Below the pieces are notes generated by a model that did not search any database, was not told the DNA's origin, and saw nothing but the letters and a program-made list of their open reading frames with translations. The position numbers were made by a program, and so were the translations under genes. 9,063 bases of DNA, taken from IMG/VR virus record IMGVR_UViG_3300029121_000075; one strand, 5' to 3'. Below are positions 654 through 6,853 of the stretch, one piece after another (the stretch's first letter is position 1; each line of letters starts with the position of its first letter). This DNA is from a virus (taxonomy: Duplodnaviria > Heunggongvirae > Uroviricota > Caudoviricetes).

Positions 654-1736
654 TTAGAACTGGTAAACCATACCTACAGCAACGATATCATCGGTAGCAA
701 CGCCAGATGCTTTCGTGAAATCGCTCTTATCAATCAGGTTGATTTTGTAGTCAACAAAAGTGGACATATTTTTGTTGAAGTAATAGGTTGCACCTACATC
801 AACATATTCAACCAGGTCCTGATCACCCCAAACACCCAAGTCTTTTCCTTTAGAATGCAGGTAAGCAACGGATGGACGCAGGCCGAAGTCGAACTGATAT
901 TGTGCAACAGCTTCGAAGTTTTGTGCTTTGTTGGCAATATGGTTATTACCAAAAACAGTCATGTTCTGGGTTTCAGAATAGGTGGTGGCCAGATAGATGT
1001 TGTTCGCATCATATTTCAGACCAGCTGCCCATACTTCAGCATTTTGACCAGAAGCATTCAGACCGTTGTTACCGTAGATAACCTGATTATTAGTGCGATC
1101 AGATTTAGCATAGGTTGCACCCACGCCGAATCCTTCATACTCATAAGTAGTTGAGAAACCGAAACCATCGCCATTAGCTTCAGTTACTTCATTTCGGTCA
1201 TTTTTGCCCTGATACTGAGCTGCAAAGTTCAGGCCATCAACCAGACCAAAGAAGTCGTTGTTACGATAAGTTGCAACACCTGTGGTGCGACCAGTCATGA
1301 ATACATCTGTTTGGGTCCAGGTATCGCCACCGAATTCTGGCAGAACGTCAGTCCACGCACCGATGTCGTATGCTACACCGTAGTTACGGCCGTAATCGAT
1401 TGAGCCGTAGTCACCGAATTTCAGGCCTGCAAATGCAAGACGGGTTTTGTCTTTGGAGGAACCTTGAGATTCAGCGCGGTTGCCTTTGAATTCATATTCC
1501 CACTGACCGAAACCAGTCAGTTGATCGTTGATTTGGGTTTCACCTTTGAAGCCAAGACGGGCATAAGTAGTATCACCATCATCTGCATCATTAGAGGAGA
1601 AGTAGTGCTTAGCATTAACTTTCCCGTACAGATCCAGCTTGTTACTGTCTTTATTATAAATTTCAGCTGCCTGAGCAGACATCGCCATCAGTACTGATGC
1701 AGCTACAGCAGAAATTGCCACTGTTAATTTTTTCAT
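654..1736 (-). CDS. nmpC: Outer-membrane general porin, OmpC/OmpF/PhoE family (prophage-borne NmpC/Lc/OmpD type)
   Basis: 360-aa ORF. N-terminal signal peptide [23 protein letters not shown] then AEIYNK. Porin hallmarks [32 protein letters not shown], and C-terminal aromatic end ...VGMVYQF. Placement between Q and the holin on the opposite strand matches DLP12 nmpC and phage PA-2 lc. Confidence 0.92.
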
Positions 1737-2324
1737 CGTGAGCCCTTTTTTTTGAACTATTATTAAAAAATGATGTCACTGCGCGATAAATATTCATCTA
1801 ATCAATGTGATTATTTCAAGATGTAAGTTTTAGTTTCTCATTTAATTTGTGAAGTAGATCTCTATTTTTATCTGAACTTTTTCTATCGAAACCTATTTAT
1901 GGCTCTTATTTGAACAAAAATAAACCTATTAGCTAATTTATATTAATGGCTGTTATTTATGGGGGTTCTATAATTCGGCAGTTTAATTTAAATCAACTAA
2001 AAATAACGTCTGAAATTATTTATTGGTTATTTGTTGAGGTTTTCTTATGTATTTGTGGTGGAGTTTTGAACACTCGGTAGCATTCTCATAAATATCATTC
2101 AGTGGTTTACGTACGTAAAAAATTGGTTATGCTGTTAAGAGTGGTTACTTCGTCACACAGCTTAAACCCGCCGTCGAGCTGGTTTTTCCATTTTTTGAGT
2201 CTCGATATTAGCTGATAACTCAATACCTGAGTTATTCACTGACTCCGAGTCTGTTACGTTTCTGCTTTTTTGCGATACGTTGTATTCCCTCAATTTACAC
2301 CCGCTTTGTCTGCGAGGTGGGGTT

Positions 2325-2540
2325 ATGAAATCCATGGATAAGTTAACAACGGGTGTCGCCTATGGCACCTCAGCAGGTAGTGCCGGTTACTGGTTTTTAC
2401 AGCTGCTCGATAAAGTCACGCCCTCACAGTGGGCAGCAATAGGTGTGCTGGGTAGCCTGGTATTTGGCCTGCTGACGTACCTGACAAATCTTTATTTCAA
2501 GATTAAAGAAGACAGGCGTAAGGCTGCGAGAGGAGAGTAA
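2325..2540 (+). CDS. Class II holin (pinholin), phage 21 S21-like, with dual-start motif (Met1 antiholin, Met4 holin)
   Basis: 71 aa starting MKSMDK, near-identical in pattern to S21 ([13 protein letters not shown]...[12 protein letters not shown]...[19 protein letters not shown]). Shine-Dalgarno GAGGTGGGG lies 6 nt upstream of ATG 2325. The ORF-track start at 2280 is a non-ATG upstream extension. Confidence 0.92.
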
Positions 2541-2544
2541 TCCA

Positions 2545-2852
2545 ATGACTCAAGACTATGAACTGGTTGTGAAAGGAGTCCGTAATTTTGAGAATAAAGT
2601 TACGGTAACTGTAGCCTTACAGGACAAAGAACGCTTTGACGGTGAAATTTTTGGCCTGGATGTCGCCATGGACCGTGTTGAAGGAGCTGCGCTGGAGTTT
2701 TATGAGGTAGCAGCCAGAATGAGCGTCCGGCAAGTCTTCCTGGAAGTAGCAGAAAAATTGTCAGAAAAAGTTGAGTCTTATCTGCAGCATCAGTACTCCT
2801 TTAAGATTGAAAATCCTGCCAATAAGCACGAGCGTCCTCATCATAAATATCT

Positions 2853-2856
<4 letters not shown>
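2545..2856 (+). CDS. ydfR: YdfR-like protein (DUF1327), unknown function, inside the lysis cassette
   Basis: 103 aa, no predicted transmembrane segment. Starts 5 nt after the holin stop behind SD GAGAGGAGAG and overlaps the endolysin start (ATGA). Same size and position as ydfR between essQ and rrrQ in the K-12 Qin prophage. Confidence 0.8.
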
Positions 2857-3880
<1,024 letters not shown>

Positions 3881-4130
3881 ATTAATATTAAATCGGATTA
3901 TTTTTAGCGCTGAATGTGAAATTTAAATAAAAAGGACTCTTCCATGAGTCAAAATCCTTGAAATCTTAAGGGTAAGATAAAAGGTCATTAGACAGAATGA
4001 CACGTTTTATTAATAAATAAAGCTATTGTTTCATTCGTGTGTTTTTCTTTACAAAAGTAATCCTTGCTATGGTTGGTTAATCATGCGTTAATGGTGTTCT
4101 GGTTTGTTACAAAATTATCTGAAGCAGTCA

Positions 4131-4243
4131 TTGTTATAATTTTATTATTTGTACCTCTTGAGATTTCCTTGTTGGTTTTTCTCTCTGATATTTTTTTTCG
4201 GACCATTCTGCCCAAGGGCTAACTTCTTCAAAAGGTAATAATG
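4131..4243 (+). promoter_or_regulatory. Candidate promoter and 5' UTR of the cold-shock gene
   Basis: Extended -10 TGTTATAAT at 4132-4140 in an AT-rich upstream region. UTR segment GCCCAAGGGC...AAAGGTAATA resembles the cspA upstream box plus SD. No transcript data. Confidence 0.3.
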
Positions 4244-4456
4244 ATGTCTAACAAAATGACTGGTTTAGTGAAATGGTTTAACCCTGAAAAAGGTTTTGGT
4301 TTCATCACGCCGAAAGATGGTAGCAAAGATGTGTTTGTGCATTTCTCAGCTATTCAGAGCAACGATTTCAAAACGTTAACTGAGAATCAGGAAGTCGAAT
4401 TTGGTATTGAGAACGGACCTAAAGGCCCTGCAGCTGTTCATGTAGTGACACTTTGA
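4244..4456 (+). CDS. cspI: Cold-shock protein, CspA family (CspI-like)
   Basis: 70 aa [38 protein letters not shown]... with RNP1 (KGFGFI) and RNP2 (VFVHF) motifs. SD AAAGG upstream. The ORF track begins one codon earlier at ATG 4241. Confidence 0.92.
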
Positions 4457-4660
4457 GGTAGAAAATATTACAAACCATATTCACTTTAGATGCCCGTGTT
4501 GCCATGGTTCTCAGTATAGAACATCATCTTTTGATGTTTCTGACAGAAATCCTTTCGGGGCAAAATGTATCTTTTGTAAATCAATGATGATTACATTTGA
4601 TAATATTTCACAATACTTAAATGTTAGCCATCTGTCGTTAGATTTAAGAAAGTGAAAATG

Positions 4661-4684
4661 AAGGCTCCTTCGGGAGCTTTTTTG
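4661..4684 (+). terminator. Intrinsic terminator (UUCG tetraloop hairpin plus U-tract)
   Basis: GGCTCC-TTCG-GGAGCT stem-loop (4663-4678) immediately followed by TTTTTT. Lies about 200 nt after the cspI stop and before the ynfN-like ORF. Confidence 0.6.
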
Positions 4685-4802
4685 CTTAGTGTCTAGTCGA
4701 TGGATACTCACATATTACGGTAACATTATGAAAAAAATAATAGTTTTTTTTAACTCTGAACCAGCAATGGTAGTGCCAGTGATGACCGGAGTTAACACCA
4801 TC

Positions 4803-4958
4803 ATGCGTGAATATCCAAATGGCGAAACAACACACCTCACTGTAATGGCTGCAGGGTTTCCATCTCTGACCGGAGATCATAAAGTCATTTATGTAGCAGC
4901 GGATCGACATGTAACTTCAGAAGAAATTCTGGAAGCAGCAATGAGACTCTTGAATTGA
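4803..4958 (+). CDS. ynfN: YnfN-like small prophage protein (51 aa); start uncertain
   Basis: 51-aa MREYPNGETTHLTVMAAGFPSLTGDHKVIYVAADRHVTSEEILEAAMRLLN matches my recollection of Qin YnfN in size and sequence pattern. GGAG lies 11 nt upstream. The frame stays open upstream to ATG 4728 (MKKIIVFF...) and GTG 4689. Confidence 0.6.
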   Translation: MREYPNGETTHLTVMAAGFPSLTGDHKVIYVAADRHVTSEEILEAAMRLLN

Positions 4959-5130
4959 TTTGATTCTAATGCATTGATAATAAATGATAATCATCTTTAT
5001 CTGTTTGTGTGAAATTTAGACCGTCGTATGTTGATTATTGCGATGTTTCATCTTATCTTTTATACGTTTGCTCCATATAATTGACACTACTGTGTACCAG
5101 GACAGTCATAACAGACTAAAAGAGGAAATG

Positions 5131-5304
5131 ATGAACATTGAAGAGTTAAAAACAAAAACAGAAGCAGATATTTCTGAATATATAACAAAAAAAATCATTG
5201 AGCTTAAGAAAAAGACCGGGAAAGAAGTTACCAGTATCCAGTTTACTGCACGGGAAAAAATGACTGGTCTTGAAAGCTATGATATCAAGATTGATTTAAT
5301 CTAG
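5131..5304 (+). CDS. gnsB: GnsA/GnsB-family small protein (57 aa)
   Basis: MNIEELK...KTGKEV..I.FTAREKMTGLESYD.KI is the Gns family signature. SD GAGG at 5122-5125. The TTG-initiated extension back to 5038 in the ORF track is not supported. Confidence 0.85.
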   Translation: MNIEELKTKTEADISEYITKKIIELKKKTGKEVTSIQFTAREKMTGLESYDIKIDLI

Positions 5305-5366
5305 CATGTTTATAGTATTAGCATCAATTTCTCATCAGATGCTATTCAACAATACAAATTACCCAT

Positions 5367-5392
5367 AAACCTCGTTTTTACGGGGTTTTGTT
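5367..5392 (+). terminator. Candidate intrinsic terminator downstream of the gnsB-like gene
   Basis: Hairpin CCUCG-UUUUUA-CGGGG (5370-5385), extendable by A:U pairs, followed by UUUUGUUAUAUUU. Confidence 0.35.
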
Positions 5393-5599
5393 ATATTTAA
5401 ACATTACCGAATAGATATAAATCTCGATTGTCGATGGTATTGGTTGTGTGACAATACCTAGTCTTTCCGGTATGCCTGAAGAGAATACAAACGACAGATT
5501 ATGTAAGGGAAACGCGCTGAAACTTTCACTCTTTCATGCTGAGTGATTTGACGTTATATTTTTAGCCGCAAGTGAAGAGCAAACGAATGGAGCGACAAA

Positions 5600-5806
5600 A
5601 TGCATAAAGATCAATACACTGATGCCCCCTCCCAGGAGCAGGTTCGTGTAAAAACTATGCTTAATAGCACCATTTCGATGGGTTACCCGGATGTTGTAAT
5701 TGCATGTATAGAACATCAAGTATCTCTGGAAGCATTCAGGGCAATTGAGGCCGCGTTAGTAAAGCACGATAAGAATACGAAGGATTATTCCCTGGTGGTT
5801 GACTGA
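5600..5806 (+). CDS. Hypothetical protein (68 aa), orphan ORF upstream of cos
   Basis: ATG preceded by GGAG at 5589-5592 (7-nt spacer). No transmembrane segment or recognisable motif. Positionally equivalent to the ydfO region of Qin, but I cannot confirm homology. Confidence 0.5.
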
Positions 5807-6175
5807 TCACCATAACTGCTAACCATTCTGACCATTTCACAAGTGACAGAGTCAATATCGTATTCTGTCACTGTAAGGCTAATACAGTACTGCAATTCAA
5901 CTACAGCAATGCCTCGTATTTAGGTGAATTTACAATATCGTCCAGTTCGGATGCCGGCTGCATTTCTGAAGATAAGGCATTTCGGTTCGCGTATTTTCCC
6001 CTCATGCTCGTCAGTCCTGCGCGTAGTAAGAAACAGGACACTCACACTAATTTGTGTGGGCATGCTGTGATGTCCTTCTGAATTATCCCCATGCCATTAT
6101 GTAACGCTCTGTTTCAGATGCTCGTCACGGTTGTCAGGCTGTCGGGTCCTCCCAGTGGGGGTCCCTGCCACGGGG

Positions 6176-6200
6176 CGGGAGCGTCGCGGAAAAAGGCTAG
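6176..6200. other. cosN-like cohesive-end site (terminase nicking site); predicted 12-nt overhang GGGCGGGAGCGT at 6183-6194
   Basis: ACG-GGGCGGGAGCGT-CGCGG aligns ungapped with lambda cosN ACG-GGGCGGCGACCT-CGCGG (13 of 17 core positions identical). Downstream GCTAGTTTTTGAAATTTC...TTCGTCAT parallels lambda GCTATTTATGAAAATTTTC...TTCGTCAT. Lies about 165 bp upstream of the small terminase start, as in lambda. Confidence 0.55.
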
Positions 6201-6237
6201 TTTTTGAAATTTCATTCGTCATCACCACCACTGTAAT

Positions 6238-6265
6238 AGATTGATATTACAGTGGTTTTATTTTT
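6238..6265. repeat. Perfect 11-bp inverted repeat with 6-bp spacer inside the AT-rich cosB-like region
   Basis: CCACTGTAATA-GATTGA-TATTACAGTGG read directly, followed by TTTTATTTTTATGG. Possible terminase small-subunit or IHF binding site, or an RNA hairpin. Confidence 0.8.
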
Positions 6266-6358
6266 ATGGTGTCGATTTTGATTGTTTTTTGTTCATCACT
6301 AACACCGTTTGCCTAAAGTTGTTCGCGAGATGCATGTTTAAAACATTCTGGAGCGGGT

Positions 6359-6853
6359 ATGGATCGAGAGTTAAAAAATCTGACGCTGAATATCAGTCAA
6401 CTGGCGGCACTGTCAGGTGTACATCGCCAGACTGCTGCGGCAAGGCTGCAAAATCTACCCGTTGCAGGGGGGCATGAAAGCAACCTCAAGCTTTATCGGG
6501 TGGTTGATATTGTGTCGGCATTTCTGGCATTGCCACCGCCGGTTGCAGAAGGCGAAATGGACGCGCATGAGCGCAAAGCCTGGTATCAGTCTGAACGTGA
6601 GCGTCTTAAGTTCGAACAGGAAACGGCACAACTCATTCCGGCCAGTGATGTCAGACGGGAGTTTGCCATCTGGGCAAAAGCGGTCGTGCAGGTGCTGGAG
6701 ACATTACCGGATATTCTGGAACGTGACTGCGGTCTGCAGCCTGCCGCTGTGAGCCGTGTTCAGTCCATTATTGATGATCTGCGCGATCAGATAGCCCTGC
6801 GGGTGACTGAAGCAGGTGCGGATGATGAGGAGGAATTACAGCAGGAGGAGTAA
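6359..6853 (+). CDS. Terminase small subunit (Nu1-like, winged-HTH DNA-binding)
   Basis: 164 aa. N-terminal HTH-like LNISQLAALSGVHRQTAAARLQNLPVAGG parallels lambda Nu1 (QLADIFGASIRTIQNWQEQGMPVLRGGG). Acidic C-terminus. SD GGAG 5 nt upstream. Stop overlaps the terL ATG (TAATG). Confidence 0.8.
   Translation: MDRELKNLTLNISQLAALSGVHRQTAAARLQNLPVAGGHESNLKLYRVVDIVSAFLALPPPVAEGEMDAHERKAWYQSERERLKFEQETAQLIPASDVRREFAIWAKAVVQVLETLPDILERDCGLQPAAVSRVQSIIDDLRDQIALRVTEAGADDEEELQQEE

Follow-up and report, generated by a model that had tools for sequence, protein, structure and literature searches.

Two accessory modules between the spanin genes and cos of a lambdoid Escherichia coli prophage: a probable host-type cold-shock operon carried as a moron, and ybcW

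The closest described counterparts of the genes treated here come from Escherichia coli K-12 and from lambdoid phages. In K-12, the prophage Qin carries cspI (b1552), ynfQ (b4724), ynfR (b4749), ynfN (b1551) and gnsB (b1550) directly after rzpQ/rzoQ, and the chromosomal locus cspG-ymcF-ymcE-gnsA has a paralogous layout, in which a csp gene with a cspA-type promoter and 5′ untranslated region (UTR) is followed 10 nt downstream by the gene for an AUU-start CxxC protein and then by a gns gene. The right end of phage lambda and of the DLP12 prophage shows the order Rz-bor-ybcV-ybcW-cos. Two functional lambdoid phages, Tritos of E. coli LF82 (OV696610) and the infant-gut phage mEp460_ev081, share their lysis genes, cold-shock block, ybcW and cos sequence with the DNA under study. 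That DNA is a stretch of 9,063 nt from the virus record IMGVR_UViG_3300029121_000075 (hereafter the window), which represents the late region of a lambdoid E. coli prophage, and the present analysis concerns the small genes that lie between its Rz/Rz1 genes and cos.

We consider, at a probability of about 0.8, that this region is composed of two independent accessory modules, where module A (approximately 4012–5392) would be a Qin-type cold-shock operon, cspI-ynfQ-(ynfR′)-ynfN-gnsB, of host type and carried as a moron, and module B (approximately 5434–5951) would be ybcW. For this reading, cold induction, the RNA thermometer, expression in the lysogen and the effect of GnsB on lipids are taken from the literature, and the gene identities, the anatomy of promoter, UTR and terminators, the module boundaries, the purifying selection and a chromosomal copy in Citrobacter come from the present work. 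The first-pass annotation of the window had proposed a single, undescribed cassette of four small genes. The four open reading frames (ORFs) do lie where it placed them, i.e., cspI, a YnfN frame ending at 4958, gnsB and a 68-aa ORF, and all of them match known families and are under purifying selection, but the actual content is five genes and a remnant of ynfR, distributed over two modules. Moreover, the cassette is already known and very common: the K-12 annotation and recent publications cover its genes, gene order, cold-shock regulation and status as a moron, each of the genes has an annotation in K-12 or lambda, and a query covering 3900–6360 finds a match in 3339 of 5426 complete E. coli genomes. 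The points added here are modest, comprising the two-module structure, the chromosomal origin and the corrections to gene count and gene models; the discovery value is small, and these corrections are the useful outcome. The features of the region are as follows.

4012–4092, plus strand: putative cspI promoter, with an AT-rich upstream block AATAAATAAAGC (4012–4023), −35 element TTGCTA (4064–4069), 17-nt spacer and extended −10 element TGcGTTAAT (4084–4092)
4086–4243, plus strand: cspI 5′UTR, cspA-family RNA thermoregulator (RF01766), the match continuing through the coding sequence to 4502
4244–4456, plus strand: cspI, 70-aa CspA-family cold-shock protein (PF00313, 108.4 bits, residues 6–70)
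4467–4655, plus strand: ynfQ (YmcF-like), 62 aa with CxxC...CxxC, ATT start 10 nt after the cspI stop, Shine-Dalgarno sequence (SD) GAGGT at 4455–4459
4658–4696, plus strand: ynfR remnant, 12 aa (21 aa in K-12), overlapping terminator t1
4661–4683, plus strand: terminator t1, hairpin AAGGCUCC-UUCG-GGAGCUUU and U run
4728–4958, plus strand: ynfN, 76-aa protein, with a T8 run at 4744–4751
5031–5081, plus strand: candidate gnsB promoter region, TTGATT (5031–5036), 17 nt, TATCTT (5054–5059), and also a perfect TATAAT (5076–5081), by resemblance to the consensus only
5131–5304, plus strand: gnsB, 57 aa, GnsA/GnsB family (PF08178, 112.6 bits)
5367–5392, plus strand: terminator t2 after gnsB, 9-bp stem and T run, the functional end of the cold-shock module
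5434–5441: recombination joint at which the Qin-type module meets the ybcW module of lambda/DLP12 type, and where the blastn segments overlap by 8 bp
5600–5806, plus strand: ybcW homologue, 68 aa, a module separate from the cold-shock block and conserved beside cos (phrog_657, E 4.6e-48, positions 1–68 of 68)
6173–6184, plus strand: cosN with candidate cohesive end GGGCGGGAGCGT, bounding the accessory region on the right

The two-module structure is evident from pairwise blastn. Left of the joint, 3883–5441 is 91% identical to both K-12 Qin and Tritos, and within it 4049–5392 corresponds to the Qin cluster, with the same genes in the same order and orientation; CspI, YnfQ and GnsB share 98.6%, 93.5% and 93% identity with their K-12 counterparts. 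Qin differs from the window in having a frameshifted ynfN, annotated as 51 aa, and a ynfR of 21 aa, and also in what lies downstream, which is ydfO-ynfO-nohA in Qin but ybcW, cos and a DUF1441-type small terminase gene in the window. The cspG locus is more distant (80%, 69% and 63% identity of CspG, YmcF and GnsA to the window proteins), is chromosomal and is devoid of ynfN, its short spacer holding ymcE instead. Right of the joint, 5434–5951 shares 81% identity with lambda/DLP12, and similarity to Tritos extends to 6172. The slot between the spanins and cos is the same in lambda, DLP12 and the window, and in each case it holds accessory genes expressed in the lysogen, for the window judging from its homologues; ybcW is common to all (79% identity at the protein level), while bor and ybcV are absent from the window, where the cold-shock module occupies the place of bor. 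The earlier description of the lambda slot as holding bor and little else is incorrect because bor, ybcV and ybcW all lie in the Rz–cos interval of a lambda-type phage. The gene ybcV/ydfO (DUF1398), which precedes ybcW in Tritos, lambda-type phage 4W and DLP12, is missing from the window at the joint, precisely where Tritos keeps it, between gnsB and ybcW. Apart from this gene and a divergence that begins ∼35 nt right of cos, Tritos resembles the window closely (91% and 85% identity over the two modules), and mEp460_ev081 is 99.7% identical.

The predicted promoter of cspI agrees with the earlier suggestion that the cassette has a promoter of its own. The block is conserved with the upstream regions of K-12 cspI, Tritos cspI and K-12 cspG, and its function as a promoter is presumed from the K-12 orthologue; owing to its −10 hexamer, GTTAAT, it escaped a generic sigma-70 scan. 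The following UTR scored 107.4 bits against RF01766 (gathering score 78, E 2.5e-27), starting at 4086, and the Rfam scan of the 9 kb detected no RNA family other than this cspA thermoregulator. Only a few substitutions distinguish the UTR from the experimentally probed UTR of K-12 cspI, which has been reported to be an RNA thermometer that opens at 10 °C (PMC13271884), and its predicted minimum-energy fold at 37 °C, a single long stem-loop that pairs the SD/AUG region, agrees with the 37 °C structure published there. CspI itself, a single cold-shock domain of ∼70 aa with readable RNP1 (KGFGFI) and RNP2 (VFVHF) motifs, is an RNA chaperone of the CspA family; it scored 139.9 bits with the NCBIfam CspG model, just under the equivalog cut-off of 144, and 127 bits with the CspA model. 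Induction of K-12 cspI on temperature downshift has been described (Wang 1999, as cited in PMC7406224 and PMC13271884). A 52-aa ORF inside the cspI UTR was rejected as a gene, having no family matches and containing stops in Citrobacter.

The gene that had been missed is ynfQ, whose AUU start is overlooked by ORF finders. A genome with 100% identity to the window over 3900–6360 has this gene annotated in RefSeq, and the product matches PF23641 (Pfam YmcF-like) over its full length with 118.5 bits. With its motifs CPCC and CIFC, YnfQ looks like a zinc ribbon; a PDB sequence search with it returned nothing meaningful. The ATT start is shared by all 88 related loci and by K-12 ymcF, and even a distant copy (contig L094) has a ynfQ-like gene that again lacks a canonical start and offers only ATT ATT. 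The RefSeq name of the homologue is "cold shock small protein YmcF", and ynfQ is listed among cold-shock-induced genes (PMC11228462). The hairpin of t1, with a fold energy of −14.5 kcal/mol, directly follows and is kept in Citrobacter with a different loop and an altered stem pair; together with t2 it bears out the expectation of at least two terminators. Although a tagged 21-aa YnfR protein of K-12 is cold-induced (PMC6001520), and the K-12 ORF overlaps t1 and extends past it, the ynfR ORF is probably not a selected feature because it has 12 aa in most loci (79 of 88) and no ATG in Citrobacter. The conserved feature is instead the terminator hairpin that ynfR overlaps, with ynfR perhaps a by-product of read-through. 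Two overlapping antisense ORFs on the minus strand (4511–4711 and 4686–4910) were rejected as genes on the grounds of no family matches and stops in Citrobacter.

The gene model of ynfN also requires correction. The protein has 76 aa in the window, in 87 of 90 loci and in Citrobacter, and the 51-aa form assigned to it before is that of the K-12 Qin allele, in which the T8 run has become T7 and the loss of 1 nt disconnects the true ATG; in Tritos, ynfN is annotated as 51 aa despite an intact gene. YnfN matches phrog_3425 over positions 1–76 of 76 (E 1.1e-55) and contains the family pattern VFFN...YP(N/D)G...A(S/A)DR...E(I/V)..A. A HMMER profile search of 1.84 billion representatives placed the family in 46 clusters at the 50% identity level, all of ∼75 aa, and revealed no fusions or named domains among the relatives; an alignment of diverse members contains no conserved stretch of 7–10 residues. 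The structure model is confident (predicted local distance difference test, pLDDT, 89) and suggests a beta-sheet-plus-helix fold without a solved relative, for which neither a fold match nor, in a PDB sequence search, anything meaningful was obtained. One contig binned as "MAG: Veillonella parvula" carries an E. coli prophage region with a YnfN that is 93% identical, which is probably a binning error.

GnsB is 93% identical to K-12 GnsB and 63% to GnsA, and matches the GnsA crystal structures 4XO1/4XO2 (E 8e-20). Profile searches, which the first-pass annotation had recommended for the 51-, 57- and 68-aa proteins, assigned families to all three (phrog_3425, PF08178 and phrog_657). Upstream of gnsB, the box TTGATTATTG (5031–5040) is invariant between the window, Citrobacter gns and chromosomal gnsA, though the surrounding spacer has diverged, and it could represent either a −35 element or the site of a regulator. 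As summarized in bioRxiv 2024.03.27.586906 and PMC10607373 (citing Sugai 2001), gnsA and gnsB cloned on plasmids rescue cold-sensitive growth, and gnsA restores or raises 16:1/18:1 fatty acids; according to the same sources, overexpression of K-12 gnsA/gnsB increases unsaturated fatty acids and suppresses fabA6(Ts) and a cold-sensitive secG null mutation. The cassette had been said to have essentially undefined roles, which holds for YnfQ, YnfN and YbcW, but not for CspI and GnsB. Terminator t2 lies just past the end of the Citrobacter homology and within that to Qin and Tritos.

The origin and integrity of module A were judged from 167 related loci, 87 fetched through YnfN and 80 through YnfQ, and from a scan of genome contigs that gave 7 loci; a YnfQ-seeded metagenome scan returned only near-identical E. 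coli prophage copies and serves synteny statistics, not distant contexts. Wherever the contig allows, cspI-ynfQ-ynfN-gnsB is intact after Rz in nearly all of the YnfN-fetched and all of the YnfQ-fetched loci, the exceptions being a decayed copy with in-frame stops and a split gnsB, and a locus in Citrobacter amalonaticus, where there are no lysis genes. In that genome (contig L012, 3322–4613), the four genes lie between a methyltransferase gene on one side and an aminotransferase and an NhaC gene on the other, and no lysis genes are present within 4 kb of the block. The homology to the window covers 4049–5304, i.e., from just upstream of the −35 hexamer to the gnsB stop. Measured against this copy, which is 72–91% identical, pN/pS is 0.07 for cspI, 0.25 for ynfQ, 0.26 for ynfN and 0.13 for gnsB, showing that the cold-shock genes are under purifying selection. 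Contig L094, which also carries icd, has a YnfN homologue (59% identical) after csp and ynfQ-like genes, and another YnfN homologue (49%) belongs to a stress island that also includes HSP20, Mn-catalase and a gns gene. Because the four genes exist outside a prophage on the Citrobacter chromosome, because a distant chromosomal csp-ynfQ-ynfN locus exists, and because of the paralogous cspG locus, the phage cassette most likely originated by capture of a cold-shock operon from a host. The block has the marks of a moron, since the slot is filled differently in relatives (bor and ybcV in a lambda-type phage), the block has its own promoter and terminators, and its GC content deviates, being 30–38% over 3800–5600 against 47–55% in the flanks. 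These marks, the thermoregulator and, by analogy, the data on the Tritos and K-12 homologues argue for the earlier proposal of a moron-type insert expressed independently of the late operon. On contig L094, two YnfN paralogues (3037–3264 and 4001–4228; 35% and 59% identical to the window protein) flank the csp/ynfQ-like pair.

Module B contains a single gene. What follows the cold-shock block varies among loci (ybcW, ybcV-ybcW or ydfO-ylcI-nohA, with a small terminase of either DUF1441 or Nu1 type), so ybcW is regarded as a separate unit, its presence or absence being independent of the cold-shock block. The 68-aa ORF had been taken for an orphan, but it encodes YbcW, which shares 79% identity with the DLP12 and lambda-type phage 4W proteins and has 1336 homologues; the pN/pS against the lambda-type phage is 0.40. 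Its AlphaFold2 model shows a three-helix protein at low confidence (pLDDT 66) with generic structural matches, and a PDB sequence search gave nothing meaningful; the module would thus encode a small, probably helical protein that stays beside cos irrespective of terminase type, in lambda and DLP12 as well as in many relatives. In K-12, ybcW is a target of FNR in chromatin immunoprecipitation, and its mRNA was 8.9-fold lower when pdhR was deleted, a drop that the authors interpreted as activation by PdhR. No FNR consensus was found upstream of ybcW in the window, unlike the site reported upstream of DLP12 ybcW. Many YbcW matches are on ENA contigs of ∼3.5 kb, and one match is labelled as a plant (Dovyalis caffra) protein; these are probably lambda control DNA contaminating public assemblies. 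The gene lies on the late strand, 367 nt left of cos, whose position at 6172/6173 follows from the linear Tritos genome, which ends at window position 6172 and starts at 6173 (GGGCGGGAGCGTCGCGG...). Because these mature ends coincide with the window positions, the placement of the cassette between the spanins and cos was correct. The overhang of cosN is presumably 12 nt, by analogy with lambda. About 45 nt right of cosN and ∼100 nt before the small terminase gene, in a stretch where Tritos diverges, a perfect 12-bp hairpin with a T run is found at 6227–6256 (−21.7 kcal/mol, z −5.2), which might be a cosB-like site, a terminator or a protein binding site.

Published data on the homologues allow a mechanism to be proposed. 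In a Tritos lysogen, CspI and YnfN were transcribed 93-fold and 27-fold over the prophage background and were shown to be morons (PMC9928086). In K-12, azidothymidine (AZT) induced cspI 6.5-fold, ynfQ 5.9-fold and ynfN 5.8-fold, with matching dependence on LexA and SspA (PMC11228462), and in long-term stationary phase the profiles of cspI and ynfN were near-identical, while a cspI knockout lost in competition (PMC7406224). These data fit a single cspI-ynfQ-ynfN transcript with partial termination. The cspG/cspI-type promoter would fire independently of the phage late promoter, and the 5′UTR of ∼145–150 nt would act as an RNA thermometer that hides SD and AUG at 37 °C and exposes them in the cold. 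The first cistrons would then yield the RNA chaperone CspI and the zinc-ribbon-like YnfQ, the latter supposedly kept at a low level by its AUU start. The weak hairpin terminator after ynfQ might be partly read through to give YnfN, and GnsB might arise from further read-through, from its own promoter or from both, and shift membrane lipids toward unsaturated fatty acids. As a net effect, the lysogen would cope better with cold and long stationary phase, provided that the phage-borne copy confers the fitness benefit seen for its homologues. During lytic growth, Q-antiterminated late transcription would cross module A as well.

Several points weigh against this interpretation. Expression of the cassette in the present prophage is deduced from its homologues in Tritos and Qin. 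Neither gnsB nor ybcW is among the Tritos genes at least 5-fold over background (PMC9928086) or among the genes co-induced with cspI (PMC11228462), so that their expression in the lysogen is uncertain. The phenotype of the K-12 cspI knockout could be due to polarity on ynfQ and ynfN, and the phenotypes of GnsB, in the account given by PMC10607373, are those of overexpression only. We infer the read-through of t1 promoted by CspI because Csp proteins are known antiterminators (PMC11228462). In addition, YnfN and YbcW have no informative structural or sequence relatives, and the frameshift of K-12 ynfN means that full-length YnfN is dispensable in that strain.

Other explanations of the cassette have also been considered. 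Being co-directional with the late operon and situated between Rz and cos, all the genes are necessarily traversed by late transcripts; there is no strong plus-strand terminator between Rz and cspI, and the position of the block is constant in the 167 loci. On these grounds, the cassette might primarily serve the phage, with Q-antiterminated late transcription as its main mode of expression, an aid to lytic growth (e.g., translation or packaging at low temperature) as its role and the cspI promoter as an incidental element. This is unlikely: in Citrobacter, the four genes and the promoter region occupy a chromosomal site outside phage DNA, both Tritos and the cryptic prophage Qin have been shown to transcribe the genes without induction of the lysogen, and a thermometer UTR with internal terminators makes sense only with autonomous transcription. 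It is the Citrobacter copy and the expression from cryptic Qin that indicate autonomous function of the cold-shock unit, although benefits to the phage and to the lysogen are not mutually exclusive. A toxin-antitoxin (TA) module stabilizing the prophage, with GnsB as the toxin and YnfN as the antitoxin in place of YmcE, seems very improbable, even though PF08178 is named as a TA toxin, the RefSeq product name is "GnsA/GnsB family addiction module toxin", ymcE-gnsA is among the listed type II TA pairs of E. coli (PMC8484670), ynfN is directly upstream of gnsB, and another chromosomal island has a gns gene 2.6 kb from a YnfN homologue. Tblastn detected no YmcE homologue in the window, nor in the 167 related loci, and YnfN is unrelated to YmcE (17% identity); K-12 maintains an intact gnsB alongside the frameshifted ynfN; overexpression of gnsA/gnsB rescues growth and does not kill; PADLOC has no match for GnsB or YnfN; and the ynfN-gnsB spacer of 172 nt, terminator-free and with its own promoter-like box, is unlike the tight coupling of type II pairs.

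A role of the cassette in anti-phage defence or superinfection exclusion, with a cold-shock-domain protein as the effector, can hardly be supposed either. Prophage moron slots often house defence genes, and CspI gives weak matches to a retron Se72 effector (50 bits against a cut-off of 82) and to CSD_V of PADLOC (54 bits), but it scores far higher on the CspG and CspA models (140 and 127 bits) and is 98.6% identical to K-12 CspI; the neighbourhood is free of reverse transcriptase genes, msr/msd elements and other defence partners, and the other four proteins have no PADLOC match. We take this explanation to be extremely improbable. Finally, ynfQ, ynfN and ybcW might be annotation noise or decaying remnants without function, given that they are very short and without known function, that ynfQ has no canonical start, that ynfN is frameshifted in K-12 and ynfR truncated in most copies, and that the YbcW model is of low confidence. 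The selection data speak against this, with pN/pS of 0.25–0.40 at a pS of 0.23–0.59, and so do the conservation of length and start codon across Escherichia, Citrobacter and a more distant genome, the uniform length of the 46 YnfN clusters, the confident YnfN model, the RefSeq naming of the YmcF homologue, the listing of ynfQ as cold-shock induced in PMC11228462 and the existence of a YmcF-like family in Pfam; the three genes are thus most improbable as noise. Widespread, clearly selected and without assigned function, YnfQ, YnfN and YbcW are fair targets for small-protein work.

Beyond the reading of module A as a captured host cold-shock operon, a broader proposal can be made, which is tentative and, in our estimation, rather doubtful. 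The csp-ynfQ-ynfN genes might form a conserved three-gene unit of Enterobacterales in which the Csp protein controls its downstream partners. CspI would melt the t1 hairpin and so time YnfN to the acclimation phase, the AUU start would tie YnfQ to the level of IF3, and YnfQ and YnfN would be new cold-shock effectors. The kit, including the membrane-fluidising GnsB, would have been spread among E. coli by lambdoid phages as a measurable fitness factor for cold and stationary phase.

The remainder of the window is filled by other late-region genes, listed below.

1–465: antiterminator Q, C-terminal part
654–1736, minus strand: NmpC/OmpC-type porin, intact
2280–3880: P21-type holin, DUF1327 (ydfR), lysozyme and Rz (DUF2514) with embedded Rz1, in that order
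6359–6853: DUF1441 small terminase
6853–8955: large terminase

Across the collection, no complete E. coli genome has at least 80% of the 9-kb window at a single place (the best reaches 78%), which suggests that the mosaic of a porin, Qin-type lysis genes and cassette, and a DUF1441 terminase is uncommon, while each part is common. The porin (360 aa; PF00267, 507 bits), situated between Q and the holin, resembles a second moron. Many related loci have one or two extra csp matches upstream of the lysis genes in place of the porin, comparable with cspB/cspF in Qin.

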